A stretch of 64,000 bases of DNA from Candidatus Omnitrophota bacterium (lineage in GTDB: Bacteria; Omnitrophota; Gorgyraeia; Zapsychrales; Zapsychraceae), in contig JADFYJ010000001.1 of NCBI GenBank assembly GCA_015233115.1, positions 3,084 to 67,083 on the forward strand, given 5' to 3'. The notes under the pieces were generated by a model. It saw only the letters and a list, made by a program, of their open reading frames with translations, was not told the DNA's origin and ran no database searches. Made by a program: the position numbers and the translations under genes. Every line of letters starts with the position of its first letter. The stretch's first letter is position 1. Positions 33,871 to 51,533 of the stretch are shown here, piece by piece.

Positions 33871-34463
33871 AAATAAAACCGAAATCAAAATTTACGATTT
33901 TAAATATTCAAAAGCAAATTATGGAATTTGCCAAAGAAAAGCCTTGGCATTTGGCGGGCATTGCGGTGGCCGTGGTTATTGTGGTACAGTTTGTTTGGTC
34001 TTATTTAACCGCTATAGAATTTCTTCCTGAACCTCAGCGTGCCCCGGTGCACAGGGCTATGGTGATTGATAAAGGGGATAGTTTAATTTGGGTTGATATG
34101 GAAGTGACGGCTGTTTCAAGAAGTATAAGAAAATCATTTAAGATTCCTTCTAATATAAAGGGAATGTTCGTGATTGATGAAGGGAAACAATCCGCCCAGC
34201 AATACGGAGTTAAAACTGGCGATGTTATTGTTTCTATCGGGCGCAGGCCGGTACCAACTGCTTCTGCTTTTGTTAAGATTGCCAATAACGTTAAATACTC
34301 GGATGGAATTCTTTTAGACATTTACCGGGATGGAAATCAGTTATATATTACCATTCCTTTTGCGTATCAATATGGCCCCGTTATGGGCCCCAATAAAGGA
34401 AGTTGGCAGCTTGGTTCACCGGCGGTCGGACAAGCCATTCAATATGGTCCAATAGTCAGGTAA
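33867..34463 (+). CDS. membrane-anchored PDZ-domain protein
   Basis: TM then PDZ (GVKTGDVIVSIGRRPVP...); ATGA overlap with the upstream protease gene. Confidence 0.6.
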   Translation: MKIKPKSKFTILNIQKQIMEFAKEKPWHLAGIAVAVVIVVQFVWSYLTAIEFLPEPQRAPVHRAMVIDKGDSLIWVDMEVTAVSRSIRKSFKIPSNIKGMFVIDEGKQSAQQYGVKTGDVIVSIGRRPVPTASAFVKIANNVKYSDGILLDIYRDGNQLYITIPFAYQYGPVMGPNKGSWQLGSPAVGQAIQYGPIVR

Positions 34464-34472
34464 AGGGAAAAT

Positions 34473-36164: not shown

Positions 36165-36172
36165 GAGAGCAT

Positions 36173-36412
36173 ATGGAACCATTTTCAATGTTCGGTGTTA
36201 TCTTGTTATCCGTGGCAGCTGGTGCGGTGTTGTCGATGGTTTCCAAAAAACCGCAAGCTCCAGTTAATAATAAAATTCAGTCTGCTGCGACGGAAAAGCC
36301 GGTTGTCCAGCAACAGGAATTAGTTTCTGAATATACAGAAGAAAAAGTACCAGGAATCATCGATGCTGAAAAAGAAAAAGCCATTGATGATTTGATTGAG
36401 AAAAGGAGTTAA
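36173..36412 (+). CDS. small membrane protein (79 aa)
   Basis: single TM then an acidic/coiled segment; tightly packed between MGC genes. Confidence 0.4.
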   Translation: MEPFSMFGVILLSVAAGAVLSMVSKKPQAPVNNKIQSAATEKPVVQQQELVSEYTEEKVPGIIDAEKEKAIDDLIEKRS

Positions 36413-36414
36413 TC

Positions 36415-36672
36415 ATGGCAACAACGAAACCTATTATTTGTACATTATGTAATGGTGAAATGCAGCTTTATACCGGGCCCCGCTATAATAAAAAATTCAG
36501 CGGTGGTTTAATTATCGGCGGTATTTTTGCGACTTGCTTTTGGATCGGCGCGGTTTTAGGAATTCCGCTTATCGTGATGGGCCTATATATGACTGGTTCT
36601 AAACGTCATTTGTGGGTGTGCAAAGATTGTAATACAGCAATTGAACGTGTTGAAATTAACACTAAAGGATAA
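36415..36672 (+). CDS. small membrane protein with split zinc ribbon (CTLC...CKDC)
   Basis: CxxC - TM hairpin - CxxC; 85 aa. Confidence 0.45.
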   Translation: MATTKPIICTLCNGEMQLYTGPRYNKKFSGGLIIGGIFATCFWIGAVLGIPLIVMGLYMTGSKRHLWVCKDCNTAIERVEINTKG

Positions 36673-36845
36673 TTTATTTTGGTTTTTGGTTGATAGTTTT
36701 TGGTTGATGGTTATGAAATGATTCTCCAAAAATTAAAAACCTTTTACAACAACATATTTTATTTAATTGGTTATTGGTTTCGGTTATTTAAATATTTCGT
36801 TTTTTCCAAAAACCACTAACCATCAACAATCAACCAGCAAAATTA
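36672..36845. repeat. GTTG/CAAC heptad element (two modules)
   Basis: ttttggtttttggttgatagtttttggttgatggtt...ctccaaaaattaaaaacc and ggttattggtttcggtt...cgttttttccaaaaaccactaaccatcaacaatcaaccagc. Confidence 0.65.
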
Positions 36846-36854
36846 ATATTTATC

Positions 36855-38063
36855 ATGCCCAATCAAATTAAAGAATATCATCGTAAGCGAATGCAGAGAT
36901 TTTGGCTTGTGGTAATGATTGTTATCATTGGCATTTTCCTTCTGGCCGCGCTTATGCATATCGGCGCGGGCGACGCGGAGTGGGGCGGGATGTCTGTTTC
37001 TAACGCGACGCCTATGATGATGATGGAACATAATATTCCGAAAGATGAACAAGGGGTCGTCGTTGATTGGTGCGAAGATCCAGCCTATGCGGCAGGGGTG
37101 CGGGCTGGAGATCTACTCAAAGCCATTAACAATCAAAGGATCAAAAATTTATCGGATTTTTTGAAAGTGACAAAGAAGACCAGTTTGGCTCCGGGCGCTT
37201 TATTAGACATTTTACGTAATGGCCAACCGCTTTATATTACGATGGAAAATAAGATTGGCATTCACGATCAGCTTAAAAAATCGCTTAACATTGATCCGGG
37301 CACTACTGGAACAACGGCAGGAAATACTAGTACGACTGATGTTCCGTTATCCGCAGGTGTAGGCAAATCAGTACATATTCCGGTTGCGGTTAATAATACT
37401 CAGGCGATTATTCCGGCAGCTTTTGCCAATCGTTCTCCGGCGGAAACAGCGGAGGCAGGGGTTAATGTTGCCCCAAAGGGTATTCCTAATATGAGTTTAC
37501 CTACGCCTAAAGAACAAGGCGCGGCTCATAAAGAATTAGTGGAAGGACATTGGCTGGGCTTAGAACTTATTCCTTTGACTGTCGAGTTAGCCACGGAATA
37601 CCGTGTTCCTCCGGATATTAAAGGGGTTCTGGTTGATGAAATATGTCTTGAGGCTGCTGAATCCGGAATTCTCGCCGGTGATATGGTGGTGGCGATTGAG
37701 GATGAATCAACGCCCGATTTAACCGCTTTTTCAGAAGCAACCAGAAATGTTAAAAATAGGTCTAAAGCGAAAGTACTTGTTTCACGCCGTGGAAAATTAA
37801 TGACCTTTATTATTACCTCTGATAGAACTTTAGGCTTTTCACAGAATGAGGCAGCTCAACCTATCACGCCAGGTGCGCTCAGTCCTCACCGCAGCAGGAA
37901 TAAACCATGTACAACTTGTCATATTATCATGCTGACCGGCGGTCAGCTTCCAACAGACGCGGGTGATATATTACCTAATCCGCCGCCGATCGCCAAAGGC
38001 GCGGTTGCGCCCCATGAATACCGGGGTAAATGCAAAACGTGTCATATTATTTTGAAAAAGTAG
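36855..38063 (+). CDS. PDZ-PDZ-magnetochrome protein (MamP / MamE-Cter-like)
   Basis: N-terminal TM; two PDZ-like regions (GVRAGDLLKAINNQRI; ILAGDMVVAIEDE); C-terminal CTTCHII and APHEYRGKCKTCHII c-heme sites. Confidence 0.7.
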   Translation: MPNQIKEYHRKRMQRFWLVVMIVIIGIFLLAALMHIGAGDAEWGGMSVSNATPMMMMEHNIPKDEQGVVVDWCEDPAYAAGVRAGDLLKAINNQRIKNLSDFLKVTKKTSLAPGALLDILRNGQPLYITMENKIGIHDQLKKSLNIDPGTTGTTAGNTSTTDVPLSAGVGKSVHIPVAVNNTQAIIPAAFANRSPAETAEAGVNVAPKGIPNMSLPTPKEQGAAHKELVEGHWLGLELIPLTVELATEYRVPPDIKGVLVDEICLEAAESGILAGDMVVAIEDESTPDLTAFSEATRNVKNRSKAKVLVSRRGKLMTFIITSDRTLGFSQNEAAQPITPGALSPHRSRNKPCTTCHIIMLTGGQLPTDAGDILPNPPPIAKGAVAPHEYRGKCKTCHIILKK

Positions 38064-38065
38064 TC

Positions 38066-38542
38066 ATGGCTTCAAAAATAAATATGAATGATAATGCCGG
38101 ATATTTGCCGATTTGTTTTTATATTGAAAGAAAAGCGTGCTTAGTTGTCGGCGGCGGCAAAGTGGCATTTCGCAAAATTACCATACTCAAAAAATTTGGG
38201 GCTGTCATAACTTGCTTGAGCCCGATTTTTGTTAAACCGCTGGAACGACTTCACGCAACGGCAAAAATTAAATGCGTCAAACGCGGTTATCCGCAGACTT
38301 TGTCTTTAAAAAAATATGCTTTGGTCATTGCCGCGACGAATGATCCGGTTGTTAATAAACGCGTGGCTTCCGACGCTAAACGAGATAATGTTTTGTTTAA
38401 TGTGGTTGATAAAAGTGCAGCTGGTTCGGTAATAATGCCGGCTATTTTGAAACATAAAGGGATGCTTATTAGTGTATCTACCGGCGGCCGCAGTCCAAGC
38501 CAAGCAAAGAAAACACGAGATATTTTAAAAGGTGTGATATGA
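38066..38542 (+). CDS. sirC: precorrin-2 dehydrogenase / sirohydrochlorin ferrochelatase (SirC/Met8/CysG-N type)
   Basis: Rossmann CLVVGGGKVAFRKI..., 159 aa; start set to the ATG at 38066 just after the upstream stop. Confidence 0.75.
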   Translation: MASKINMNDNAGYLPICFYIERKACLVVGGGKVAFRKITILKKFGAVITCLSPIFVKPLERLHATAKIKCVKRGYPQTLSLKKYALVIAATNDPVVNKRVASDAKRDNVLFNVVDKSAAGSVIMPAILKHKGMLISVSTGGRSPSQAKKTRDILKGVI

Positions 38543-39531
38543 AATTAGTGCTGATTGGAACAAGTCATAAAAGAGCGCCTTTGGCGATGCGGGAAAAATT
38601 TAGTTTTTCGGGCGAGAAGTTGGGGCAGTATTATGCTCGTCTTAAGAGCTATCCTGACGTGCGTGAGGCGTTTATTTTGTCGACTTGCAATCGGGTTGAA
38701 ATATATGGAGTTGGGCAGGATGCTGTTGTTGTCGCTGATCAGTTAAAGAAATTTTTGCGTGAAGTGCATGGGATGAATTCGGCTTCATGGGAAGAACATT
38801 TTTATAATAAGACAAATAAAGATGCGCTCGAACATCTTTTACGAGTAGCTAGCGGCCTTGATTCTATGGTAATCGGTGAGCCGGAGATTATTGGACAAAT
38901 TAGAAAAGCCTATGATCAAGCTTGTATGGCCGGCGTGATTGGCTCGTATCTTCATAAAGCTTTGCAAGATTGCCTACAAGTCGGGAAAAAAGTGCGCAGT
39001 TCTACCGGCATATCTCGCGGAGTAACGTCAGTTTCAGGTGTAGTTGTTGAATTATTGAAAAAACAATCTAATCTTAAAGATAAAAAAGTTTTGGTCATCG
39101 GCGCGGGTAAAATCGGCGCTATGACTGTGGTGAAATTAGCAGATCTTCTTATTGGTGAAATTATAGTGATGAACCGTGACATGACTAGGATGGCAGATTT
39201 CGAGCATATTACGAATATGCGGCCGGCAGAATTTTGCGCGCTTAAAGATGAAATTTTAATCGCGGATATTGTCATTGCCGCGACAGCTTCAATGAAATAT
39301 CTTTTGGATCGCGACTTAATTAAAGAGGCGTTTTTGACCCGGAAAAATGATTTGCTTTTGGTTGATTTAGGCGTGCCCCGCAATATTGATGAAACCACCC
39401 GGCAAATCACTGGCGTGACGCTTTATAACATTGATGATTTAGCCCCGATTGTGGATGAGACCATGCGGTACCGGACTCAAGAAGCCGAAAAAGCCGAAGA
39501 AATTATTCAAGGTAAATTGGCATTTATGTAG
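38539..39531 (+). CDS. hemA: glutamyl-tRNA reductase
   Basis: LIGTSHK.APLA.RE, active-site STCNRVEIY, NADPH fold VLVIGAGKIG. Confidence 0.9.
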   Translation: MKLVLIGTSHKRAPLAMREKFSFSGEKLGQYYARLKSYPDVREAFILSTCNRVEIYGVGQDAVVVADQLKKFLREVHGMNSASWEEHFYNKTNKDALEHLLRVASGLDSMVIGEPEIIGQIRKAYDQACMAGVIGSYLHKALQDCLQVGKKVRSSTGISRGVTSVSGVVVELLKKQSNLKDKKVLVIGAGKIGAMTVVKLADLLIGEIIVMNRDMTRMADFEHITNMRPAEFCALKDEILIADIVIAATASMKYLLDRDLIKEAFLTRKNDLLLVDLGVPRNIDETTRQITGVTLYNIDDLAPIVDETMRYRTQEAEKAEEIIQGKLAFM

Positions 39532-39539
39532 AACATAAA

Positions 39540-39660
39540 GCGCGCGGTTGGGCGGTTTGCATTTAAACCGAATCCTTCGCTCAAACAGCAGCTCCTAAGC
39601 GGAGCTGAACTCGCTCGGTGATTCGGTTTCAACGCCAACCTTGTATTTTGGCACGCGGTT
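39540..39660 (+). repeat. R1 structured element, copy 3
   Basis: gcgcgcggttgggcggtttgcatttaaaccgaatccttcgctcaaacagcagctcctaagcggagctgaactcgctcggtgattcggtttcaacgccaacc...ggcacgcggtt. Confidence 0.85.
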
Positions 39661-39667
39661 AGAAATT

Positions 39668-40558
39668 ATGAGATCAATTACTTTTGGAATACGAAAAAGT
39701 GTTTTAGCTCGCCGGCAAATGGACGAGTTTATCGCGTATTTGGGAAAGAATAATATTACGTTTGATTATTCGGTCAAAATTATTCAGACGGCAGGTGATC
39801 AGGATCAGAAGTCGCCGGTTTCGCAAATGGGGCAGGGAATTTTTACGAAAGAAATTGAGCGCGCGATTCTGAACAAGGAAATTGATTGCGCGGTACATAG
39901 CCTTAAAGATATGCCGGTTAAAACGGAAAAAGGGACTTTGCTGACTTTTTGTGGTGGTCGAGAAGATGTTCGTGATTGTCTGGTAGTTCGAGCAGGTATA
40001 TCGGCTGATCATTTAAATAATTTGCGTATAGGAACAGGCAGTCCGCGGCGGATCGCTTTTTTAAAAGAGTTAGATCCATCCGTTAATATATTGCCCATTC
40101 GAGGGAATGTTGACACTCGTTTACGGAAATTGGATTTAGGCGAATACGACGCCATTGTTTTGGCTGCGTGCGGTTTGAAACGTTTAGGATATGGAAACCG
40201 GATCAATCGCTATTTTGACCCGGACACTTTTGTTCCTGCTGCTGGTCAGGGTGTTGTTTGCGGTCAGACGCGGGAAGATGATGTAGAATTAATCAAGGTA
40301 TTGAAAAAATGTGTTTCGCCTGTAACGGAACAAATAGTCAAAGCGGAACGAAAAGTATTGGAAGCTTTAGGCGTCGGATGTCAAACTCCGTTCGGCGTCT
40401 ATGCTCGTTTTGAAGGTGAGACATTTATTATATCTGCCAAGTTGTATGCAGAACATAACCAAACTTTTATGACAGAACGTAAAACGGGAAATAAAGATGA
40501 TTTTGAAAAAGCTACGGATGAATTGATTGAAAATCTTAAACGAAAAATAAAGGATTAA
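39668..40558 (+). CDS. hemC: porphobilinogen deaminase (hydroxymethylbilane synthase)
   Basis: start moved to ATG 39668 (MRSITFGIRKSVLA) because the ORF-track start lies inside the R1 repeat; cofactor-binding Cys in GVGCQTP. Confidence 0.9.
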   Translation: MRSITFGIRKSVLARRQMDEFIAYLGKNNITFDYSVKIIQTAGDQDQKSPVSQMGQGIFTKEIERAILNKEIDCAVHSLKDMPVKTEKGTLLTFCGGREDVRDCLVVRAGISADHLNNLRIGTGSPRRIAFLKELDPSVNILPIRGNVDTRLRKLDLGEYDAIVLAACGLKRLGYGNRINRYFDPDTFVPAAGQGVVCGQTREDDVELIKVLKKCVSPVTEQIVKAERKVLEALGVGCQTPFGVYARFEGETFIISAKLYAEHNQTFMTERKTGNKDDFEKATDELIENLKRKIKD

Positions 40559-40560
40559 AA

Positions 40561-40697
40561 GGTAGGGATGTGTGCAATGGGCGTCGTTTCAACCAAGTCC
40601 TTCGCTCAAACAGCAGCTCCTAAGCGGAGCTGAACTCGCTCGGGGACTTGGTTTTCACTCTGCCTGAGCAAGCGCAAGGTTTGTGGCATGCAAACTA
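40561..40697 (+). repeat. R1 structured element, copy 4 (divergent flanks, conserved central hairpin)
   Basis: ...tttcaaccaagtccttcgctcaaacagcagctcctaagcggagctgaactcgctcggggacttggttttcac... Confidence 0.7.
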
Positions 40698-40716
40698 AAA
40701 TTTAGAAAATAAAGCT

Positions 40717-42222
40717 ATGAATAAAGTAATTAAATTAGGAAAGGTTTATCTCGTCGGTGCTGGTCCTGGTGACCCTGGTCTTATCACTGTTAAGGCACTC
40801 GCCTGCGTTCAGACTGCTGACGTGATTTTGTATGATAAATTGATTGACACCAGCATATTAAAATATTGTAAAACTGGCGCGGTCATCAAATATGTCGGTA
40901 AAGAAAAAGGGAAGATCTTACAGCAAGAAGCGATCAATGAGTTGTTGCTAGGGTATGCTCGTGAAGGTAAAACTGTAGCGCGGCTTAAAGGCGGAGACCC
41001 GTTTATTTTTGGCCGCGGGCAGGAAGAAATGATTTTTCTGAAAAGTTATGGTATTGACTGTGAAGTGATACCGGGTGTGAGTTCATTTTATGCTGTTCCT
41101 GAAGTGTGTGGCATCCCGCTCACCCATCGGGACATTTCCAGCGGATTTATGGTATTAACCGGGCATGAAAAGCCGGGTAAAAATGTTGAAAATGTTGAAT
41201 GGAAGCATGCGGCTAAATTTCAAGGCACGATTGTAATAATGATGGGATTGTCAAATCTGGCTGAGCTTACGGCTAAATTGCTTAAATATGGGAAAGACGG
41301 TAGAACTTTGGCAGCGGTTATTGCGCATGGATCCACCCCCCAACAGGAAGTTGTAGTTGGGACGCTGGCAGATATTGCGTATAAATCCCGGAATTTCAGT
41401 TCTCCGGCTATTTGTGTCATTGGCTCTGTGGTGAAAGTTGGTTTCGCCTTAAATCCGGATTTAAAACCGCTTTTGAATAAACGCTATTTATCTACGGCGA
41501 GTGAAGATCTTAACCGGGATTTGTCAGCTATTTTAGAACGATGGGGCGCTAAAGTGGAATGTTTGCCTATGATTCGAATTGAAGAAAATTCTGATACTGT
41601 TTTGATGGATCAAATTATTGCGGATCCTAAAAAGTTTGACTGGCTGGTTTTTACATCGCGACATGGCGTTCAGTATTTTTTTAAAAGATTTTATGTGTTA
41701 AAAGGGAAAATAGGAAGTTTGAAGGGACGAGTGGCATGCGTCGGGACAGGTACAGCCAAAGAATTCTCTAAATGTGGAATACAACCGGATTTGATGCCTG
41801 CCATATTTACAACCAAAGACTTGGGTTTGGCTTTATTGGAAAAAGGCGTTAAAGGGAAAAAATTAGCTTTAATCCGCACGCAGATGGACAAGGATCCTTT
41901 AAAGAAAATGTTGAAGAAAGCCGGTGCTGATATCACAGATTGTTTTGCTTACAACGTCGCGGATACCAATGATAAAACAGCATTAAAAAACGCGGTTATG
42001 CAAAAACCCGACGGTATTTTCTTTTTAAGCCCTAGATCTGTGCGGGTATTTTTTGAACTGCTGTCAACTAAAGATCTTGAACCAGTTAAAAAATCGAGTT
42101 TATTTTTTTCAATCGGTACAGTCACAACTCAGGCATTAAAAAAACAGGGTGTTAAAAATGTTATACCTGCTAAAGAACATACAGTACAGGGGTTGGTAGA
42201 ACTCTGTTTAGGAGGAAACTAA
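40717..42222 (+). CDS. cobA/hemD: bifunctional uroporphyrinogen-III C-methyltransferase / uroporphyrinogen-III synthase
   Basis: N-terminal SUMT (VYLVGAGPGDPGLITVKA, RLKGGDPFIFGRG), C-terminal HemD fold. Confidence 0.9.
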   Translation: MNKVIKLGKVYLVGAGPGDPGLITVKALACVQTADVILYDKLIDTSILKYCKTGAVIKYVGKEKGKILQQEAINELLLGYAREGKTVARLKGGDPFIFGRGQEEMIFLKSYGIDCEVIPGVSSFYAVPEVCGIPLTHRDISSGFMVLTGHEKPGKNVENVEWKHAAKFQGTIVIMMGLSNLAELTAKLLKYGKDGRTLAAVIAHGSTPQQEVVVGTLADIAYKSRNFSSPAICVIGSVVKVGFALNPDLKPLLNKRYLSTASEDLNRDLSAILERWGAKVECLPMIRIEENSDTVLMDQIIADPKKFDWLVFTSRHGVQYFFKRFYVLKGKIGSLKGRVACVGTGTAKEFSKCGIQPDLMPAIFTTKDLGLALLEKGVKGKKLALIRTQMDKDPLKKMLKKAGADITDCFAYNVADTNDKTALKNAVMQKPDGIFFLSPRSVRVFFELLSTKDLEPVKKSSLFFSIGTVTTQALKKQGVKNVIPAKEHTVQGLVELCLGGN

Positions 42223-43328
42223 TGATTCCATGTAGTAAAATCATGCGCGGTGAGCGTAGTGTTCATAATGAACGGAAAACCGGGCCGCTTTTTGTTTGGA
42301 ACGTGATTAGCCGATGTAACCTTTTGTGCAGTCATTGTTATCGTGATTCACAGGCCGGTATGGAAGCGCCTGATCTGTCTGATGAAAAATGTTTAGAATT
42401 AGTCAGCCAGATTAAAGCTGTCAATCCGCCGATCGTGCTTTTGACCGGAGGGGAACCGCTTTTAAGAAAAAATATTTTTGATTTGATCAAAGAATGCAAG
42501 AATCAAGGTTTACGGGTCGGGCTTTCCACCAATGGCACCTTAATAGACAAAAGTATGGCACAAAAAATCAGCCAAGCCGGAGTTGATTATGTAGGGATCA
42601 GTATTGACGGGAAAAAAGAACATCATGATGTGTTCCGCGGATCAAAAGGTGCGTATGATGCCAGCTGGGCAGGGCTCAAGATATTAAATGAGTTAGGCGT
42701 TAAAACCGGTGTGCGTTTTACTTTGACTGCTGCTAACAGTGGCGATCTTATGGACATTCTGGAAAAAACCGTAGCTAGCGGATGTAAACGTTTTTGCCTG
42801 TATCATTTGGTCTATGCCGGCCGCGCGTCTAAAGATTTGGATATGACTGTCAAAGCGAAGCGGGACATTTTAAAAATATTTTTTACAAAAGTAAAAGAGT
42901 TATCCGCGAAAGATCCGAGTTTTGATGTGTTGACCACAGATAATCCGGCAGATGGAATTTTTATGTCAAAGATTATTGATGATGGCGAAGCGGCCATGTC
43001 CTGCATAATGGCGCACGGTGGCTGTTCAGCCGGTGACCGGGTGGTATATCTGGATTCAACCGGTGATGTTTATCCTTGCCAGTTTTTGCGCGATCATTCG
43101 TTGGGTAATGTGAAAGATCAGACATTTTTAGAAATATGGGAAAATCATAGCAATGAATTTTTACAGCAGTTAAGGAATAAAAAAGGATTGTTGCAAGGTG
43201 TTTGCGGTGAATGTGCGCACAAAGGCATTTGCGGCGGATGCCGCGCCCGTGCCAAAGCTTTTCACGGTTCCCTATGGGCAGAAGATCCGGCATGCTATTT
43301 GAATGAAAATGAAAAAAATGGTGTCTGA
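42222..43328 (+). CDS. radical SAM / SPASM protein of the alternative heme pathway (AhbC/AhbD/NirJ family)
   Basis: CNLLCSHCY radical SAM cluster motif; C-terminal CGEC..C..GC SPASM cysteines; position inside the heme operon. Confidence 0.75.
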   Translation: MIPCSKIMRGERSVHNERKTGPLFVWNVISRCNLLCSHCYRDSQAGMEAPDLSDEKCLELVSQIKAVNPPIVLLTGGEPLLRKNIFDLIKECKNQGLRVGLSTNGTLIDKSMAQKISQAGVDYVGISIDGKKEHHDVFRGSKGAYDASWAGLKILNELGVKTGVRFTLTAANSGDLMDILEKTVASGCKRFCLYHLVYAGRASKDLDMTVKAKRDILKIFFTKVKELSAKDPSFDVLTTDNPADGIFMSKIIDDGEAAMSCIMAHGGCSAGDRVVYLDSTGDVYPCQFLRDHSLGNVKDQTFLEIWENHSNEFLQQLRNKKGLLQGVCGECAHKGICGGCRARAKAFHGSLWAEDPACYLNENEKNGV

Positions 43329-43421
43329 TCTCGATTGGAAATTGACGCCAAGCATTTAACCGGCGATAATTTTTTCTTTCGAGCAATTTGTTTCAAGTCG
43401 AGATCTGACACCATTTTTTAT
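43313..43421 (+). terminator. large hairpin element (arms ~22 nt) followed by a T-run, terminator-like, copy 1
   Basis: aaaaaatggtgtctgatctcga ... tcgagatctgacaccatttttta; the first arm overlaps the last codons of the radical SAM gene. Confidence 0.5.
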
Positions 43422-43424
43422 AAA

Positions 43425-43545
43425 GCGCGCGGTAGGGCGGTTTGCATTTAAACCAAATCATTCGCTCAAACAGCAGCTCCGAAGCGGAGCTGAACTCGCT
43501 CGGTGATTTGGTTTCAACGCTAACCTTGGATTTGGGCACGCGGTT
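43425..43545 (+). repeat. R1 structured element, copy 5
   Basis: gcgcgcggtagggcggtttgcatttaaaccaaatcattcgctcaaacagcagctccgaagcggagctgaactcgctcggtgatttggtttcaacgctaacc...ggcacgcggtt. Confidence 0.85.
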
Positions 43546-43580
43546 AATGAAATGTTTTTAAAAATTTATGAGAATTAATT

Positions 43581-44549
43581 ATGACTAATCATATGCCTAC
43601 CCGATTAAGACGTTCAGTCTCCATTCGGAATCTTGTCCGTGAGACTCGATTGGCTAAAGAAAATTTGGTCATGCCTTTGTTTTTTAAAGAAGGGAAGGGC
43701 GTTGAACCGATTGAGTCTATGCCGGGCATTGGTAAAATGTCACAGGACGCGCTTTTAAAAGAAGTTGAAAAACTGCAAAAGGCTGGGATCAAATCTATTT
43801 TGTTGTTTGGGTCAACCTCTTGCAAGGATGCGGATGGCACTTTAAGTTATGATGAAAAAAGTCCTTTTCATACGACGTTGCGCGCGATTAGAAAAGCCAG
43901 TGATATGGTGATTATCGCGGATGTTTGTTTGTGCGCGTACACGGATCACGGACATTGCGGTGTTTTGACGGCAGGTCCTAAAAATCGACGGATTGATAAT
44001 GCGAAAACTTTAGAGACTTTTGCGAAAGTGGCGGTATCTTATGCGAAGGCCGGTGTTGACATGGTGGCACCGTCAGCTATGGCAGATGGGCAAGTGAAAG
44101 CGCTCCGTACGGCATTAGATAAAAATGGATGTTCTCAAACTTTGATTATGAGCTATGCCGTTAAATATGCGTCGAGCTTTTATGGGCCGTTCCGGGATAT
44201 TTATGATTCCTCTCCTGAATTTGGTGACAGGAAAACCTATCAAATGGATCCGGGCAATAAACGTGAAGCTTTGCGGGAAGCATTGTTGGATGTGAAAGAA
44301 GGCGCGGATATTATCATGGTTAAACCGGCTTTGACATATTTGGACATAATCAGCGCGGTGCGTGAAAAGGTGAATGTCCCGGTCGCCGCGTACAATGTGA
44401 GCGGGGAATATTCCATGATCAAAGCGGCAGGTTTAAAAGGCTGGCTGGATGAGAAATCCGCAGCTTTGGAAATTTTGACGTCTATCAAACGCGCAGGCGC
44501 GGATATGATTATTACGTATTGGGCCAAGGAGGCAGCCGCGTGGATTTAA
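43581..44549 (+). CDS. hemB: porphobilinogen synthase (ALA dehydratase)
   Basis: RLRR...R N-terminus, metal-site Cys cluster (CLCAYTDHGHCG), active-site Lys regions. Confidence 0.95.
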   Translation: MTNHMPTRLRRSVSIRNLVRETRLAKENLVMPLFFKEGKGVEPIESMPGIGKMSQDALLKEVEKLQKAGIKSILLFGSTSCKDADGTLSYDEKSPFHTTLRAIRKASDMVIIADVCLCAYTDHGHCGVLTAGPKNRRIDNAKTLETFAKVAVSYAKAGVDMVAPSAMADGQVKALRTALDKNGCSQTLIMSYAVKYASSFYGPFRDIYDSSPEFGDRKTYQMDPGNKREALREALLDVKEGADIIMVKPALTYLDIISAVREKVNVPVAAYNVSGEYSMIKAAGLKGWLDEKSAALEILTSIKRAGADMIITYWAKEAAAWI

Positions 44550-45544
44550 AACCCAGAATTATTTTTTGGGAAACAACAAATCAATGCAATTTGCAATGCT
44601 GTCATTGCCGGATGTCAAAAAACAAATCCGGTATAGAGCTGAATACGGCTGAAGCGTTTAAATTTATTAAAGAGCTGAAAGATAACTTTGGGCCGGTTAT
44701 TTTAGTGCTGAGCGGAGGGGAACCGCTATTGCGGACAGATATTTTTGATATCATTGCCTTTGCTAAAGAACAGGGAATAACGACTGCGTTGGCAACGAAT
44801 GGGACCCTTCTGGGCCTTGAACAAGCATTGAAATTAAAAGCATTGGGGATCAATCGGGTGAGTTTGAGCCTTGATTCTGTCATAGAAAAAATACATGACG
44901 CGGCTCGTGGGTGTTTAGGGGCTTTTAAAAAGACTAACGATGCTGCTGATATTTTGCACCAACAGGGCATTCCGTTTCAAATTAATTATACGGTGACTAA
45001 GGCGAATAAAAACGATCTGCGTGCTGTTGCTGAATTGGCTTTGTCCATTGGCGCGTGTGCTGTGCATTATTTTATTTTGGTTCCGGTGGGCTGCGGCAAA
45101 GAAATTGAAAAAGAAGCTATGCTGGACGCGGAAGATAATGAGCAAGTATTAGGCATAATCAAAGGTCTGGCCGAAGAATTTTCAATTGAGATCCGCCCAA
45201 CTTGTGCGCCTCAATACGCACGTCTGGTTCGACGCGCTTCGCTTGCTCACCATAGTATGGCGAGCGGATGTTTGGCAGGCACAGGGACGTTTTTTATTTC
45301 ATCGTATGGTGACATTTATCCGTGCGGATATTTACCGGTTAAGGCTGGATCAATTCGCGAAAGTTCCATAGCAGAAATTTGGCAAAATTCGCTAGTATTT
45401 AATAATTTACGAACCAATGATCTTAAAGGCGGTTGTTCAACTTGCGGTGTAAAAGAAAAGTGCAGAGGATGCAGAGCCAGAGCCTATGGCGTGACCGGAG
45501 ATTATATGGCCGGTGATGTGACGTGCGTTTTATCAAAGCGTTAA
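44519..45544 (+). CDS. radical SAM / SPASM protein of the alternative heme pathway (AhbD/AhbC/NirJ family)
   Basis: CNLQCCHC cluster motif, SGGEPLLR, C-terminal CSTCG..C.GC SPASM; the exact start is uncertain (31-nt overlap with hemB; GTG at 44539 is an alternative). Confidence 0.75.
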   Translation: MGQGGSRVDLKPRIIFWETTNQCNLQCCHCRMSKNKSGIELNTAEAFKFIKELKDNFGPVILVLSGGEPLLRTDIFDIIAFAKEQGITTALATNGTLLGLEQALKLKALGINRVSLSLDSVIEKIHDAARGCLGAFKKTNDAADILHQQGIPFQINYTVTKANKNDLRAVAELALSIGACAVHYFILVPVGCGKEIEKEAMLDAEDNEQVLGIIKGLAEEFSIEIRPTCAPQYARLVRRASLAHHSMASGCLAGTGTFFISSYGDIYPCGYLPVKAGSIRESSIAEIWQNSLVFNNLRTNDLKGGCSTCGVKEKCRGCRARAYGVTGDYMAGDVTCVLSKR

Positions 45545-45550
45545 TTTTGA

Positions 45551-45650
45551 CGCAGGCGATCAGGAGATCGCCCCTACGAAAAATGCGTTGTTTTAATAAT
45601 ATCATCGCGGTTGTACGGGCGATCTCCCGATCGCCCGTAACAAAAGTATC
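45551..45650. repeat. palindromic TIR element (copy C)
   Basis: gcaggcgatcaggagatcgcccctacga ... gtacgggcgatctcccgatcgcccgtaacaaaagtatcg. Confidence 0.7.
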
Positions 45651-45673
45651 GTTTTTGTTTTATTATAAAATTT

Positions 45674-46147
45674 ATGAGAAGCCTTTGTATGGACCCAAAA
45701 ACGACAGAAATTTTATCTGCTTTGCAGAATGGATTGCCTATATGTGCTCAACCTTTTCAAGCTTTAGCAGACCAAGTCGGGTTAACAGAACAGGATGTTA
45801 TTTCGCGGATTGAATGGCTGTGTAAAAATAAATATCTAAAACGGGTCGGTTTTAGCTTTAATACTCATAAACTCGGGTTGGTGAGTACGTTAGCGGCTTG
45901 TCAGATACCTAAAAACGATCTTAACCGCTGCCAAAAGGTTATCGCGGCATGCGGCAATATTACTCATAATTATTTGCGTAAACATAGTCTTAATATGTGG
46001 TTTACTGTTACAGCGCCATCGAAGAGCAAATTAGCGGTTATTTTAGATAAACTCAAACATGATTTAAAAATTGAGGAAATTATCAGTCTGCCTACAGAAA
46101 AATTATATAAACTGCGGTTCAAATTAAATGTTGAAAATGTTGAATAA
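45674..46147 (+). CDS. ahbA: siroheme decarboxylase subunit (AhbA/NirD-L-like, AsnC-type fold)
   Basis: N-terminal wHTH (ILSALQNGLPICAQPFQALADQVGLTEQDVISRI) + RAM-like domain; paired with a paralog. Confidence 0.7.
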   Translation: MRSLCMDPKTTEILSALQNGLPICAQPFQALADQVGLTEQDVISRIEWLCKNKYLKRVGFSFNTHKLGLVSTLAACQIPKNDLNRCQKVIAACGNITHNYLRKHSLNMWFTVTAPSKSKLAVILDKLKHDLKIEEIISLPTEKLYKLRFKLNVENVE

Positions 46148-46622
46148 AAAAGAAAAGCAAATTATCGCGTATTTTTCCGTTCATGATCTTGAATTTTCTT
46201 CAAATCCGTTCGCGAAAGCGGCCAAGACTTTGGACTTGACCGAAGTTGAGCTTATTGATATACTTACGAACCTGCAAAAAAGCGGATTTATTAAGCATTT
46301 GAGCGGGGTGTTGAACCATCGAAAAAATGGTTATAAAGCTAACGCGTTAATCGCTTGGCGATTATATTTATCGTCTAAGAACGTGAAAAATAGTCAATTT
46401 ATTGACTTGATTATGGGTGACGATCGTATTTCTCATTTTTACCAGCGGACACCGGACAAGCTTTTTAAATATAATATATATTCTATGATGCACGCGAAGG
46501 CCAAAAAAGAAATTACTGATTTTGTTAAGAAAACATCCCGAGAATTTGACCTTGATTATGAGATTTTATTCACTGAAAAAGAACTTAAAAAAGAAAAACT
46601 TAACTTGGGGGAAATGCTATGA
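46128..46622 (+). CDS. ahbB: siroheme decarboxylase subunit (AhbB/NirG-H-like)
   Basis: paralog of the preceding ORF (IIAYFSVHDLEFSSNPFAKAAKTLDLTEVELIDIL). Confidence 0.7.
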   Translation: MLKMLNKKEKQIIAYFSVHDLEFSSNPFAKAAKTLDLTEVELIDILTNLQKSGFIKHLSGVLNHRKNGYKANALIAWRLYLSSKNVKNSQFIDLIMGDDRISHFYQRTPDKLFKYNIYSMMHAKAKKEITDFVKKTSREFDLDYEILFTEKELKKEKLNLGEML

Positions 46623-47911
46623 TCGCGCTTAAGCATTCCAACAGGTTATTAAAACGCGGCGCGCAAAGTCTTATCGGCAGTGTGAATTCTCCGGTTCGCA
46701 GTTTTAAAGCTGTGAATACAGATATGCTATTTGCCCAAAAAGCTTATGGTCCATTTATTTGCGATATAGATGGCAATAAATATATTGATTATATTATGAG
46801 CTGGGGCGCGGCTATTTTAGGACATGCTTTTAAGCCTGTTGTTGATGAGGCAATTCTGGCTGTTAAAAATGGTTCGAGTTTTGGTTTAGCTACTGAACAG
46901 GAAATCCAACTAGCTGAAATTATCAAACGAAATTATTCTAGCATAGATAAAATTCGTTTTACTGCTTCTGGCACCGAAGCTTGCATGACCGCTGTGCGTT
47001 TAGCCCGCGCGTTTACCGGCAAAACGAAAATTATAAAATTCGACGGTTGTTATCATGGACACTTTGACAGTCTTTTAGTCAAAAGCGGTTCCGGAAATTT
47101 GACTTTGGGTATTCCGTCTGGCGAGGGGATTTTACCGGCCTATAGCCGCGATACTGTTTCAATTTCTTTTAATGATATTGAGCTTTTTAAAAAAGCTGTT
47201 GAAGTTAATAAAAAAGATTTGGCTTGCGTGATTGTTGAACCTGTTCCGTGTAATACCGGCGTCATTCTTCCGCAAACGGGATTTTTAAAAGCTTTAGCAA
47301 AGATTTGTAAAGATAATCAAGTTGTTTTGATATTTGATGAGGTGGTGACGGGTTTCCGGTTATCACTCAAAGGCGCCCAAGGATTGTTCGGGGTGAAGCC
47401 TGACTTAACGTGTTTTGGTAAAATTATCGGCGGTGGTTTTCCGATTGGCGCTGTTGCCGGACGAAAAGAAATTATGGATCTTTTAGCGCCGGTTGGCGGC
47501 GTTTATCAAGCCGGTACTTTTTCCGGGAATCCGGTGTCGATTTCAGCCGGGATCAAAGCGTTAGAATGTTTGGAAAAAAATAAAAAAATTTACATAGATC
47601 TTGAGCAGAAAACCGCTGCCTTGGTTTCGGTCATTAAACATGAAGCCGAAGCGAATGGTATTAAAGTGACGATCAACACCATAGGCTCGGTTTTTTCGAT
47701 TTTTTTTACTGATCACGAAGTAAGGTCATACGCGGATACGCTGGACGTGGACAAAGCATTTTACGCTGATTTTTTCGCGCAACTTTGTCAGGAAGGCGTG
47801 CTGTTTCCGCCGTCAGCATTTGAGGCCTGTTTTCTGTCACAAGCGCATAGTGACGCGGTGATTGGACAAACCGCTAAAGCTGTTAAAAAGATTTTTCGCA
47901 TGAGGAGATAG
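46619..47911 (+). CDS. hemL: glutamate-1-semialdehyde 2,1-aminomutase
   Basis: GSVNSPVRSF, PLP-lysine region FGKIIGGGFPIGA, 430 aa. Confidence 0.95.
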   Translation: MIALKHSNRLLKRGAQSLIGSVNSPVRSFKAVNTDMLFAQKAYGPFICDIDGNKYIDYIMSWGAAILGHAFKPVVDEAILAVKNGSSFGLATEQEIQLAEIIKRNYSSIDKIRFTASGTEACMTAVRLARAFTGKTKIIKFDGCYHGHFDSLLVKSGSGNLTLGIPSGEGILPAYSRDTVSISFNDIELFKKAVEVNKKDLACVIVEPVPCNTGVILPQTGFLKALAKICKDNQVVLIFDEVVTGFRLSLKGAQGLFGVKPDLTCFGKIIGGGFPIGAVAGRKEIMDLLAPVGGVYQAGTFSGNPVSISAGIKALECLEKNKKIYIDLEQKTAALVSVIKHEAEANGIKVTINTIGSVFSIFFTDHEVRSYADTLDVDKAFYADFFAQLCQEGVLFPPSAFEACFLSQAHSDAVIGQTAKAVKKIFRMRR

Positions 47912-47913
47912 GT

Positions 47914-48189
47914 ATGAAAGCGTCAAGTGTATTTAAGATCATCGCGATATTTTTTGTGGTAATGCTAGCCGGTATGTTTATTTTTGAAAATATTGATCCT
48001 GTACCGATTTGGATTCCATTTTTTAAAGGCCGTCGTTTCGGGCTGATTTTTATTATTTTGGCTTCTTATATTTTGGGAGTGCTTACCGCAGTTTGGGTTA
48101 TGAAACGAATTGGCGCGAATATGAAAAAACAAATAAAATTGCGCGAATTGGCTGAAGAAGAAGAGGAGTTGTTTGAAGATGAAGCATAA
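47914..48189 (+). CDS. small membrane protein (LapA/DUF1049-like) with acidic tail
   Basis: two TM, C-terminal EEEEELFEDEA; GAGGAG RBS. Confidence 0.45.
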   Translation: MKASSVFKIIAIFFVVMLAGMFIFENIDPVPIWIPFFKGRRFGLIFIILASYILGVLTAVWVMKRIGANMKKQIKLRELAEEEEELFEDEA

Positions 48190-49069
48190 GGGACCTAAAA
48201 CTCCACAAAAATGTGAGTCATGCGCGCGGAATACTATTTTAGCCGGTCTTTTAGCAAATTTTTTTCTTGCGGCTTTTAAGCTTTTTGTTGGTTTTTTGGG
48301 ACGCAGCCGCGCTTTGATCGGAAGCGGTTTATGCAACTTGAGCGATGTGGGTTCGTCGTTTGTGGTTATCATTGGTATCAAATTTTCCAAGAAGCCGGCA
48401 GACCATCGTTATCCATATGGATATGGTAAAGTCGAGTTTATCGCTCAAGTCGTCATGAGCGTTACCATGATTTTGGGTACAGTTGCGCTTATTTTAAGCT
48501 CGTTCATTGTCATTGCTAAACGGACGCTGGTGGTTCAGCATATGGTGGTATTTTTTGTGGCTATTTTGAGCGCCATCATTAATGCTTTGCTTTTTAAATT
48601 TTCACATTGCGGCAGTAAAGAGCTTAATAGCCCGTCGTTAAAGGCGCATGCTGAACATAACAAGATTGACGTTATTTCTTCTTTACTGGTTGCGATCGGG
48701 GTTATTGTGACCCGTAAAGGTATGCATTGGGTTGATCCAGCAATTGCTATTTTCGAGTGCGCCCATGTTTTGCATGGCAGTATGGGTATTTTAAAAGAGG
48801 GGCTTAAAGGGATTATGGATACCAATCTTCCTGACAGCTATCTGGAAAACGTAAAAAATACTGTTTTACGGGTTAAAGGGGTTAACAAAGTAAATCTGGT
48901 TAAAGGCCGCCAGTCTGGACGGCATATTGTGTTAAACATTATCATGCAATTGAACCCTGATATTACGGTTCTGGACGCTAAGAAGATTAATCAGTCAGTA
49001 AAAGCCTATTTACGCGGTGAAGATAAACATATTGGTAACATTTCAATACAGGTCGTTCCAGCAGAGTAA
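48179..49069 (+). CDS. cation diffusion facilitator (CDF) transporter, MamB/MamM-like
   Basis: 6 TM with a CDF metal site (H/D in TM2/TM5: ...NLSDVGSS..., ...SLLVAIGV...), C-terminal cytoplasmic domain; ATG 48179 chosen (TTG 48173 possible). Confidence 0.75.
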   Translation: MKHKGPKTPQKCESCARNTILAGLLANFFLAAFKLFVGFLGRSRALIGSGLCNLSDVGSSFVVIIGIKFSKKPADHRYPYGYGKVEFIAQVVMSVTMILGTVALILSSFIVIAKRTLVVQHMVVFFVAILSAIINALLFKFSHCGSKELNSPSLKAHAEHNKIDVISSLLVAIGVIVTRKGMHWVDPAIAIFECAHVLHGSMGILKEGLKGIMDTNLPDSYLENVKNTVLRVKGVNKVNLVKGRQSGRHIVLNIIMQLNPDITVLDAKKINQSVKAYLRGEDKHIGNISIQVVPAE

Positions 49070-49320
49070 CAAAGTAACCGAGTAACAGAGTAACAGAGAA
49101 AAAGCGGTTATAGGGATAGGCGATGATTAGAAAAGCGATTGGTTTGAAGTAAAACGATAAATAAATAAGGTGAAAATTGCTTTATTTTAATTTATAAATT
49201 GTGAAATTGAATTTATGAGATTTCTTGTTTGATAATTTTTGTCGATAGTTTTTGCTTTTTTGTTTTTTTACTCGGTTACTAGGTTACCCGGTTACTTTGT
49301 TACTTTTAAGTTAGGATAAG
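49066..49320. repeat. GTNAC octamer-array cassette bracketing an AT-rich spacer
   Basis: gtaacaaagtaaccgagtaacagagtaacagag+gaaaaagcggtt ... ttttactcggttactaggttacccggttactttgttact; right array ends ~15 nt before the ATG. Confidence 0.75.
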
Positions 49321-49322: not shown

Positions 49323-50237
49323 ATGGAAGATAAATGTGTCAGATGCGCGAAGACGGTTCCCTGGATGGTTTTAATGGGGAATTTGACGCTGTCTATTTTT
49401 CAGATTTATATTGGATACGCGGCTAAGTCAAAAGGTTTGGTCGCTGACGGGATCCATTCTGGAACAGACGTGGTCACGACCATCATGGTTATTATCACCG
49501 TCGCGCTTTCGAGTCACAAAGATGATAAAAAATACCCTTGGGGTTTAGGAAAATCTGAATTTCTGGGTGCAGTTTTTGCTTATATTTTATTATTAGGTAT
49601 CGCATTAATGATTTTGATTGACGCGATCCATGTGATCATGAGCGGGGTGATTAATCCGCCGCACATGGCCGCTTTTTTTGCGGCTTTGGTGGCCATCATC
49701 TCGAATTATATTTTATCGTCGTATGGATTTTGCGCTGGGAAGAAAATGAATTCGCCGGCTTTAATTGCTAACGCTCAGGAAAACCGCTCTGATATGTTAT
49801 CGAGTATCGCGGTTTTAGTTGGGGTTTTTGCCGCCAACATTGGCTTTCCGATTGTCGACGCGTTAGCTGCTGTTCTGGTTGGTTTAATGATTGCCAAGTC
49901 TGCGGTGACTTTAGGCTTGCAGGCTTACAAAAATTTAATTGACGAATCTTTGCCCGGAGATAAAGAAAAAATTCTTGAGAAAGCAGTTATGCAGTATAAA
50001 GAGGTTAAGGGCGTTAATTATATTCACGTCCGCCGTGTTGGGCAAAAAGCGTGGATTGACATGGAGATTATTATTGATCACAAACGGACAGTAAAGGAAG
50101 GCCACGCGATCGCCCGAGAAATACGTCAGGCACTTATGCGGAAGTACAGTCAGATAAAAGACGTCACGATTTCTTTTACATGCAAAGAAGTTCAAGGAGT
50201 AAAAGGGATTAGAAAAGAAATAGTCATCGCGAAATAA
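49323..50237 (+). CDS. cation diffusion facilitator (CDF) transporter, MamM/MamB-like
   Basis: paralog of the preceding CDF (HSGTDVVTT..., ...DMLSSIAVLVGV...); 304 aa. Confidence 0.75.
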   Translation: MEDKCVRCAKTVPWMVLMGNLTLSIFQIYIGYAAKSKGLVADGIHSGTDVVTTIMVIITVALSSHKDDKKYPWGLGKSEFLGAVFAYILLLGIALMILIDAIHVIMSGVINPPHMAAFFAALVAIISNYILSSYGFCAGKKMNSPALIANAQENRSDMLSSIAVLVGVFAANIGFPIVDALAAVLVGLMIAKSAVTLGLQAYKNLIDESLPGDKEKILEKAVMQYKEVKGVNYIHVRRVGQKAWIDMEIIIDHKRTVKEGHAIAREIRQALMRKYSQIKDVTISFTCKEVQGVKGIRKEIVIAK

Positions 50238-50288
50238 AGTAGCAGAGCAAAAGCGAATGATTAAAGAATGAAAAAGCGATCAGGAAAA

Positions 50289-50411
50289 GCGCGCGGTTGG
50301 GGCGGTTTGCATTTAAACCAAATCCTTCGCTCAAACAGCAGCTCCTAAGCGGAGCTGAACTCGCTCGGGGATTCGGTTTCAACGCAAACCTTGTGTATGG
50401 GGCACGCGATT
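50289..50411 (+). repeat. R1 structured element, copy 6
   Basis: gcgcgcggttggggcggtttgcatttaaaccaaatccttcgctcaaacagcagctcctaagcggagctgaactcgctcggggattcggtttcaacgcaaacc...ggcacgcgatt. Confidence 0.85.
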
Positions 50412-51373: not shown

Positions 51374-51493
51374 ACAAGCTGACAAAAAAAGTGATACTGT
51401 GACAACGCAATAAAGATGTTTTTTGTGGATCCCCGATTCAAGCATTCGGGGATGACATATTTAATTTTAATTTATTTTTTGTTTTTACTACAT

Positions 51494-51533
51494 ACGACAT
51501 GCTACATACTACATGCTAGTCGAAAGGTAATTT
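51494..51533 (+). promoter_or_regulatory. conserved upstream motif shared by both lemA-family genes (cgacatgctacat..ctacatgc..tcgaaagg)
   Basis: compare 1475-1528 upstream of lemA: cgacatgctacatgccatgtactacatgcgtgaataatcgaaaggag. Confidence 0.4.

Follow-up and report, generated by a model that had tools for sequence, protein, structure and literature searches.

Magnetite formation relies on heme c-binding magnetochrome proteins, and the locus described here raises the question of why genes for making heme should lie in the middle of the gene cluster that encodes such proteins. The locus was found in a stretch of 64,000 nucleotides from a Candidatus Omnitrophota bacterium (assembly GCA_015233115.1, contig JADFYJ010000001.1, positions 3,084 to 67,083), and this whole stretch is called the window below. 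Ten co-oriented open reading frames (ORFs) are contiguous at 38066-47911 on the plus strand in the order sirC, hemA, hemC, cobA-hemD, ahbC-type, hemB, ahbD-type, ahbA, ahbB and hemL. They form a discrete unit of 9.85 kb placed exactly between two otherwise adjacent magnetosome genes. Very likely they encode a functional Ahb pathway for heme that is embedded in the magnetosome cluster and inherited with it. The reading favoured here, and held to be probable, is that a heme b module was captured once and has been inherited and co-expressed with the mam genes; a supply dedicated to the magnetochromes would be a plausible role for it.

The junctions are tight. The MamP-like stop codon and the sirC start are separated by 2 nt, as are the hemL stop codon and the start of the gene for a 91-amino acid membrane protein, and the plus strand is the orientation of nearly all genes in the window. 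Because intergenic space is near zero at both junctions, the block most likely shares transcripts with the mam genes on either side, and co-transcription is accepted here as likely. The GC content is even over the region with no discontinuity at the hem block. An earlier interpretation made from the letters of the DNA (the sequence-only reading) had described the ten genes as contiguous and co-oriented and as flanked on both sides by magnetosome genes. ORF positions and profile identities agree with the first statement, and Pfam and NCBIfam matches to MamE, MamP, MamM, MamB and magnetochromes with the second (Table 1). An assembly chimera was considered and rejected, since the same arrangement recurs in many independent NCBI and JGI assemblies and is therefore not an assembly artefact. 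At 100% identity the AhbC-type protein matches MBF0477896.1, which comes from a metagenome-assembled genome (MAG) named 'Candidatus Omnitrophica bacterium'.

The proposed pathway would use HemA, HemL, HemB, HemC and HemD as its trunk, and CobA and SirC would lead on to sirohydrochlorin. Iron would be inserted by an enzyme encoded outside the block, after which AhbA/B, AhbC and AhbD would carry the route to heme b. AhbC activity is that of a didecarboxysiroheme deacetylase with Fe-coproporphyrin III as its product. The full route from Glu-tRNA to heme b, as claimed in the sequence-only reading, is represented gene by gene at all steps except iron chelation, a gap which that reading had itself pointed out. 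Its preference for the Ahb route over a heme d1 route is supported by two distinct radical SAM paralogs, a siroheme decarboxylase pair, the full trunk and the lack of nirS, nirF, nirN and nirE in the window. The second, shorter radical SAM paralog was found in every related cluster.

In the proposed profile comparison of AhbC with AhbD, the second radical SAM protein is best matched by AhbD ('heme b synthase'), at a score below the cutoff. The first belongs clearly to the AhbC/NirJ/NirJ1 subfamily, within which sequence scores cannot split AhbC from NirJ and thus do not separate the exact reaction. For the AsnC-like pair the best NCBIfam matches are AhbA and AhbB, just below the cutoffs, and the Ahb and Nir subtypes carry out the same reaction. 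Both proteins pass the Pfam thresholds for NirdL-like_HTH and/or AsnC_trans_reg2. The CX3CX2C motifs of the radical SAM proteins (at residue 32 in the AhbC-type and residue 23 in the AhbD-type protein) and their SPASM cysteines are intact, as are the active-site motifs of HemA, HemB and HemC and the cofactor cysteine of HemC. For neither radical SAM protein was a close structure found in PDB, where PqqE and SkfB are the best matches.

Two of the enzymes are short. SirC consists of the Rossmann and dimerisation segments only, aligning to residues 3-145 of Salmonella CysG, and is without the C-terminal helical domain. The TIGR01035 match of HemA spans profile positions 2-326 of 416 with an intact TCNR active-site motif, and the protein ends after the NADPH-binding domain, without the C-terminal dimerisation domain. 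All Omnitrophota HemA relatives examined (L024-L033) have 330-360 amino acids and no GlutR_dimer match, thus the short form characterises the lineage and does not reflect a truncated gene. The hemC ORF opens at 39641 but its likely ATG is the one at 39668, as alignments to relatives start around residue 10.

Related loci (given here with the prefix L) show that the arrangement is not confined to one genome. Searching metagenomes with the MamP-like protein yielded 19 loci, a genome-collection scan gave one true relative, L001, and further contexts were sampled via AhbC homologs, a sample that is unbiased regarding mam genes. Three other loci from the genome-collection scan (L002-L004) were set aside as they contain unrelated radical SAM genes. 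L001, the Omnitrophota MAG nDJH6bin14, is collinear with the window over 32728-43963 at about 76% nucleotide identity. The hem block is kept at the same site in nine lineages including the window, with AhbC proteins 53-88% identical. A full block was found at this site in L001, L024, L025, L026, L031 and L032, and in L014, L015 and L022, grouped with L031, MamP is followed by sirC. L027 has a reduced block at the same site (CcsA-like, hemA, ahbC, hemB, ahbD, ahbA and ahbB). A further reduced set in L033 (CcsA-like, hemA, ahbC, ahbD, ahbA and ahbB) sits between a 5' HTH_17 gene and mamI-mamE of a divergent magnetosome cluster. Within the clade, the linkage to a magnetosome cluster holds in 8 of 8 contexts sampled via AhbC homologs. 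In L024, L025, L031 and L032 hemL overlaps the downstream magnetosome gene, that of the 91-amino acid protein, by 4 nt.

Other loci show the site empty or the hem genes elsewhere. Eleven of the 19 loci from the MamP scan pass directly from MamP to the 91-amino acid gene, mamM, mamB, mamA and mamQ, and in L016 MamP is followed by two CDF genes, the MamM-like one first, with no 91-amino acid gene detected. In L028 (2708-15811) the same genes stand in the same order together with one unrelated inserted gene, directly after feoB-fur-feoA/dtxR and with no mam gene within 10 kb. L030 (Omnitrophica WOR_2 GWF2_38_59; 6629-11140) has only an ahbC-like gene at the same feoB locus, apparently the remnant of a hem cluster that was lost. 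Two gene fusions were also seen in the hem blocks of relatives, ahbB-hemL of 592 amino acids (L031, 13777-15555) and ahbD-ahbA of 480 amino acids (L032, 9936-11378).

The embedded copies are accompanied by one further gene. Of the 12 embedded copies, 11 (L001, L014, L015, L022, L024-L027 and L031-L033) have a CcsA/HemX-like gene of about 261 amino acids, of the Cytochrom_C_asm family, which in L001 is at 5598-6383. Its place is immediately before hemA, where it follows sirC in the clusters that have sirC, MamP in L027 and the HTH_17 gene in L033. The free-standing cluster of L028 is also without it. The best NCBIfam match of the protein is CcsB (TIGR03144, 154 bits, cutoff 187.6), and a WGxYWSWD (WWD) motif together with His131 and His257/258 is conserved in the proteins of nine relatives. 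No ResB-like gene was found adjacent to the CcsA-like gene in relatives. The protein could be a subunit of a cytochrome c synthase or heme exporter, or a HemX-type regulator of HemA abundance. Retention of the WWD motif and the conserved histidines suggests that it may truly be a subunit of a cytochrome c synthase and not a regulator of the HemX type. Whichever role applies, the gene would tie the hem module to heme handling. The reduced forms in L027 and L033 have retained the CcsA-like gene, hemA and ahbABCD, that is the heme-committed steps and the first enzyme of the pathway.

The history of the block can be followed through its closest homologs and through trees. The named closest AhbC homologs all belong to Omnitrophota, from 88% down to 51% identity, and other phyla follow at about 46%, which marks the hem genes as native to the phylum. 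A recent foreign transfer was considered and rejected on the same pattern of homologs and the lack of a GC shift. When the AhbC tree is rooted with other phyla, all magnetosome-linked copies form one clade, with L028, L030 and P0027 as its sister. Concatenated hem and mam trees were built as neighbour-joining (NJ) distance trees with bootstrap from modest data. The hem tree groups the window with L024-26 (100%) and L027 with L032 and L033 (88%), matching a group of L027, L031 and L032 in the mam tree (100%), so that key splits of the congruent trees have 88-100% bootstrap. A peat clade without hem genes (100%) is bracketed by hem-carrying lineages, and the hem-less L016 falls with L032 and L027 (100%).

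As the hem and mam trees agree, they point to one old capture that was inherited with the magnetosome cluster. In the simplest history, a native hem cluster that already existed would have been captured once and then co-inherited, with the block later lost completely once or twice, reduced once and repositioned once. For the mam tree the root was inferred from the hem tree, and a root on the peat-clade branch would need one loss fewer. A single recent gain, as might be read from an NJ tree of 151 C-terminal MamP residues in which hem-carrying loci are monophyletic, was rejected because the concatenated bootstrap trees nest hem-less clades inside the hem-carrying ones.

The mechanism proposed for the favoured reading begins in the ancestor of one magnetotactic Omnitrophota clade, which would have taken in a native hem cluster as a single unit between mamP and the 91-amino acid gene. 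With read-through from the mam promoter or promoters, heme b output would track expression of the magnetosome cluster, and heme production would rise with the synthesis of heme c-binding magnetochrome proteins. Heme would then be delivered to the magnetochrome CXXCH sites by a maturation system encoded elsewhere in the genome. The window has six such sites in all, over three magnetochrome proteins that each match Pfam MCR above threshold. Since a heme pathway is present in less than 75% of Omnitrophota genomes (PMC10066038), carriage inside the cluster is potentially useful. The sequence-only reading had proposed a co-regulated heme supply, and the same-site block in nine lineages and its co-divergence with the mam genes back this, as do the hemL overlaps of four relatives and the CcsA-like gene in nearly all embedded copies. 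Whether selection for magnetochrome heme supply has kept the linkage is close to evenly balanced, with the balance leaning slightly against. More doubtful, and put forward tentatively, is the proposal that the hem/ahb genes and the CcsA-like gene form a selected accessory module, a self-contained heme b supply handed over for covalent attachment to magnetochrome domains.

Several observations weigh against the favoured reading. The organism probably has no trunk hem genes besides these ten, which would thus be housekeeping genes whatever their position. Two lineages are hem-less, the peat clade (L005-L013, L018, L020 and L021) and L016, and as both are bracketed by hem-carrying lineages the block is not required within the cluster itself; with its losses and reductions it is accessory there. 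The whole magnetosome cluster is collinear among these genomes, so that retention of the block could reflect general operon inertia. The window itself has no CcsA-like gene at the corresponding site (38539-38542), a clean 795-bp difference from L001, and is by this comparison a lineage that lost the gene. The profile scores of AhbA, AhbB, AhbC and AhbD all lie below the NCBIfam curated cutoffs. No chelatase family, SirB, CbiX and CbiK included, and thus no sirohydrochlorin ferrochelatase was found among 69 window ORFs of at least 70 amino acids, in agreement with the earlier statement that a stand-alone enzyme is missing, and the gene may be elsewhere in the genome. The same scan found no cytochrome c maturation genes. 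Finally, strongly folding hairpins or repeats occupy four internal gaps of the window block, and these elements, including the U-tailed hairpin after ahbC, could attenuate or modulate read-through.

The gaps concerned measure 109-252 nt in the window and are near zero in L024-L026. One of them, between hemA and hemC, is filled by a structured repeat with further same-strand copies at 14612-14738, 28430-28605, 40587-40654 (partial), 43420-43553 and 50286-50411, six copies in all of which three lie inside hem-cluster gaps. The copies are 81-94% identical (blastn), and each forms a long imperfect hairpin with folds of -36 to -45 kcal/mol; the apical stem differs in one copy yet still pairs. The repeat had no match in any related locus, and an Rfam search of 31.5-58 kb returned no RNA family. 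Two further long hairpins follow ahbC and ahbD (Table 1), and a palindrome with GTAAC-rich arms of 39 nt is found between mamM and mamB (49065-49304). These three palindromes may be terminators, attenuators or RNA-stability elements. A consensus scan was uninformative, giving 56 promoter-like sites where 45 were expected and 14 terminator-like sites where 21 were expected.

The strongest of the other explanations is neutral hitch-hiking, in which a single housekeeping hem operon was dropped once into the mamP-mamM interval and met no counter-selection, so that co-expression is a by-product. The trunk pathway is seldom duplicated in bacteria, and the block holds the whole of it (hemA, hemL, hemB, hemC and hemD). 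L028 shows that the same genes in the same order, bar the one insert, can stand free beside feoB-fur-feoA, two lineages lack the block in a magnetosome cluster that is otherwise undisturbed, and the synteny of the cluster is highly conserved in general. However, the linkage has survived deep divergence, with AhbC down to 53% and MamP down to 34-52% identity, and has outlasted reduction and repositioning, as L027 and L033 hold the CcsA-like gene, hemA and ahbABCD by mam genes while trunk genes have moved out. The CcsA-like gene goes with 11 of 12 embedded copies and not with the free-standing one, and the hemL overlaps suggest translational coupling with the downstream mam gene. Hitch-hiking is seen as somewhat unlikely.

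A linkage through iron homeostasis would explain the position differently. Making heme consumes much iron and also generates signals, and a hem cluster that travels with iron genes could have met in the magnetosome cluster just another iron locus. The L028 cluster directly downstream of feoB-fur-feoA/dtxR and the lone ahbC-like gene at that locus in L030 fit such a view, and so does the feoB gene of the magnetosome cluster itself, as feoB is usually present in magnetosome clusters (Lin et al. 2020, PMC7602337). However, the hem block lies about 14 kb upstream of that feoB and directly after the magnetochrome gene mamP, the cluster FeoB shares just 48% identity with the FeoB encoded next to the free-standing hem genes, and the extra gene specific to the module is a homolog of cytochrome c or heme-handling proteins and no iron regulator. 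This explanation is quite improbable.

That the block yields heme d1, or only siroheme or cobalamin precursors, with NirJ-like radical SAM proteins and a NirDL/GH pair, is hardly credible: the first radical SAM protein does score higher with NirJ1 (323 bits) and NirJ (321) than with AhbC (298), and AhbB matches the NirDL structure (106 bits) above the AhbB of D. desulfuricans (53 bits), but the heme d1 route needs a single NirJ where a second distinct paralog with AhbD as its best match (323 bits) is present, family scans found no nirS, nirF, nirN, nirE or nirC in the window or in the 12 embedded hem clusters, NirDL/GH and AhbA/B carry out the same siroheme decarboxylation (PMC4145669) so that this comparison cannot discriminate, and the TIGRFAM names NirJ1 and NirJ2 correspond to AhbC and AhbD in a table of PMC10991733.

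The supply-module reading can be set beside known heme gene clusters. The Ahb route of Desulfovibrio vulgaris, Desulfovibrio desulfuricans and Methanosarcina barkeri is alike in its uroporphyrinogen-III C-methyltransferase (SUMT), precorrin-2 dehydrogenase, decarboxylase pair of the heterodimer type and two radical SAM/SPASM enzymes, and Desulfovibrio also has a cobA-hemD fusion. In contrast to these systems, all ten genes including the whole trunk are here gathered in one co-oriented block, HemA is short, SirC has only 158 amino acids, scores fall below the NCBIfam equivalog cutoffs and the location is a magnetosome cluster. To our knowledge, no Ahb cluster has been described inside a magnetosome gene cluster. 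The iron chelatase of M. barkeri lies outside the ahb cluster and is still unidentified (PMC3942049), and the chelatase gene is outside the cluster here too.

The HemX protein of Bacillus subtilis, encoded in the hemAXCDBL operon, is a membrane protein of the CcsA family that lowers HemA levels (PMC10991733). The relative order of the trunk genes hemA, hemC, hemD, hemB and hemL is the same in that operon and in the window, and the CcsA-family gene of the relatives adjoins hemA as hemX does. However, ahb genes and cobA are interleaved here, the CcsA-like gene stands before hemA and the window has none, the relatives' CcsA-like protein keeps the WWD motif and histidines, and the terminal pathway is Ahb whereas that of Bacillus is coproporphyrin-dependent.

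The flanking genes resemble the mamAB operon of Magnetospirillum and the Omnitrophota clusters of Lin et al. (2020) in MamE, MamP, MamM, MamB, MamA, MamQ, a MamN-like protein, magnetochromes and feoB, and the TauE protein of the window resembles the C-terminus of MamO. The name of the closest relative, nDJH6bin14, fits the MAG naming of the same study. The feoB of magnetosome clusters is a dedicated paralog, as distinct from the hem block, which is far larger and looks like the main or only hem gene set. Magnetosome clusters have been described as mam, mms, mad and man genes with feoAB (Lin et al. 2020, PMC7602337), and the ten-gene operon of primary metabolism in the mamP-mamM interval differs from this description. 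The presence of feoAB is at the same time a precedent for a supply function of general metabolism recruited into a biomineralisation cluster.

No mention of heme or siroheme biosynthesis in magnetosome clusters was found in Lin et al. 2020 (where the word 'heme' is absent), in Uzun et al. 2022 or in full-text literature searches, the reach of which did not include Kolinko et al. 2016. This accords with the earlier remark that a hem pathway is not a standard feature of described magnetosome islands. The Ahb pathway itself is known (PMC3942049, PMC4145669), and the magnetosome cluster around the block is typical of Omnitrophota. The present locus also documents the Ahb pathway in this phylum. 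The novelty lies in the combination, a heme module integrated in the core of the magnetosome cluster and inherited with it.

If the arrangement means what is suggested here, biosynthesis of a cofactor would for the first time be seen recruited into the gene cluster of the magnetosome, and the arrangement offers a testable idea of how the supply of a cofactor is adjusted to the biogenesis of an organelle. On the supply-module reading the biomineralisation cluster would be metabolically self-sufficient in a phylum with patchy heme synthesis, the module would be inherited and possibly transferred with the cluster, and the CcsA-like gene, hemA and ahbABCD would be its minimal dedicated core. The finding is relevant to transplanting magnetosome clusters into hosts with limited heme synthesis or cytochrome c maturation, and the full, reduced, repositioned, lost and free-standing forms are a natural series of variants for comparison. 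The gene order is firmly established and is one not usually met in a magnetosome cluster, and the functional meaning is inferred from the genomes of uncultured organisms.

Table 1. Genes and structured elements of the hem block and the surrounding magnetosome cluster, in window coordinates.
Feature	Position	Strand	Assignment and evidence
MamE-like serine protease	32479-33870	+	Pfam Trypsin_2, PDZ; NCBIfam MamE 258 bits, second to DegP 293 bits; syntenic in all related magnetosome clusters
PDZ protein, 198 aa	33867-34463	+	Pfam PDZ_2; position kept in relatives
563-aa double-magnetochrome protein	34473-36164	+	Pfam MCR 59.7 bits; best NCBIfam MamT; CXXCH at residues 482, 508
Two small ORFs, 79 and 85 aa	36173-36672	+	tblastn 60-92% identity in relatives; no Pfam family
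MamP-like protein, PDZ and two magnetochrome domains	36855-38063	+	Pfam MCR, PDZ; NCBIfam MamP 223 bits; CXXCH at residues 352, 393
sirC	38066-38542	+	Short precorrin-2 dehydrogenase, 158 aa; TIGR01470 cysG_Nterm 98.6 bits (cutoff 62.3); Pfam NAD_binding_7
hemA	38539-39531	+	Glutamyl-tRNA reductase, 330 aa; TIGR01035 325 bits (cutoff 209.55); Pfam GlutR_N, Shikimate_DH
Structured repeat, about 125 nt (family D1)	39535-39666	+	Fills the hemA-hemC gap
hemC	39668-40558	+	Hydroxymethylbilane synthase; TIGR00212 277 bits (cutoff 164)
cobA-hemD fusion	40717-42222	+	Uroporphyrinogen-III C-methyltransferase and uroporphyrinogen-III synthase; TIGR01469 287 bits (cutoff 185); Pfam TP_methylase, HEM4
ahbC-type radical SAM/SPASM	42222-43328	+	NirJ1 323, NirJ 321, AhbC 298 bits (cutoffs 650, 515, 650; none reached)
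Long hairpin, 29-nt arms, flanking A-run and U-run	43313-43419	+	Right after the ahbC stop codon; -40.5 kcal/mol, z -4.6
hemB	43581-44549	+	Porphobilinogen synthase, Zn, Cys-rich type; NF006762 455 bits (cutoff 297); DVCLCAYTDHGHCG motif present
ahbD-type radical SAM/SPASM (heme b synthase)	44519-45544	+	TIGR04545 323, NirJ2 317 bits (both below 500-bit cutoffs)
Long hairpin, 43-nt arms, then U-rich stretch	45535-45655	+	ahbD-ahbA gap; -54.5 kcal/mol, z -6.9
ahbA	45674-46147	+	Siroheme decarboxylase alpha; NF040708 137.2 bits (cutoff 140); Pfam NirdL-like_HTH, AsnC_trans_reg2; PDB 4czd_A (AhbA) 108 bits
ahbB	46128-46622	+	Siroheme decarboxylase beta; NF040707 103.7 bits (cutoff 125); PDB 4ch7 (NirDL) second half 106 bits, 4czd_B 53 bits
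hemL	46619-47911	+	Glutamate-1-semialdehyde 2,1-aminomutase; TIGR00713 543 bits (cutoff 527)
91-aa membrane protein, acidic C-terminal tail	47914-48189	+	Weak LapA_dom match; directly after MamP in L005-L013, L018, L020, L021
MamM-like CDF	48173-49069	+	NCBIfam CDF_MamM 243 bits; Pfam Cation_efflux
MamB-like CDF	49323-50237	+	NCBIfam CDF_MamB 238 bits; Pfam Cation_efflux
MamA-like TPR, MamQ-like LemA, MamN-like, TauE, PDZ, HTH_17 and 188-aa double-magnetochrome proteins	50492-57533	+	Pfam; MamN 264 bits; CXXCH at residues 152, 179 of the 188-aa protein
feoB	61822-63846		Part of the magnetosome cluster

The MamE-like gene is the first core magnetosome gene upstream of the hem block. MamP, MamM, MamB and MamN are the best NCBIfam matches for their proteins, all of which, like MamE, score below the equivalog cutoffs; this is read as a consequence of the models being built on well-studied magnetotactic bacteria. 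Magnetosome formation by the source organism, an uncultured one represented by a MAG, is predicted from gene content. Housekeeping genes fill the window from 1 to 28 kb, which places the left edge of the cluster near the ApbE/HTH_17/FixCX genes at 28.6-31.8 kb, as in relatives.

ApbE (a flavin transferase) and HTH_17 regulators mark this 5' edge in the window (28593-31784), in L027 (2105-3693) and, upstream of MamE, in L006, L008 and L010. A FixC/FixX-like flavoprotein-ferredoxin pair is found at the edge in the window and in L027, with 70% and 63% identity between the two. Together these genes may serve such clusters as a conserved accessory module for redox functions. The 563-amino acid magnetochrome protein has a Nitro_FeMo-Co-like N-terminus, zinc-ribbon-like segments and two magnetochrome domains, an architecture that is kept in relatives with a middle part only 35-65% identical. 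The MamN-like transporter (52424-54238, 604 amino acids) has an N-terminal PDZ domain, which is kept wherever the gene is present (L005, L006, L008, L024-L027 and L032).

A C_GCAxxG/TusA/DsrE fusion protein of 373 amino acids is encoded at 58529-59650 within the magnetosome-cluster region. ParE-type toxin modules were found at 5877-6378, where the upstream ORF of 83 amino acids has no family match, and at 59739-60261, where a full antitoxin-toxin pair separates the TusA-DsrE gene from feoB within the magnetosome-cluster region.

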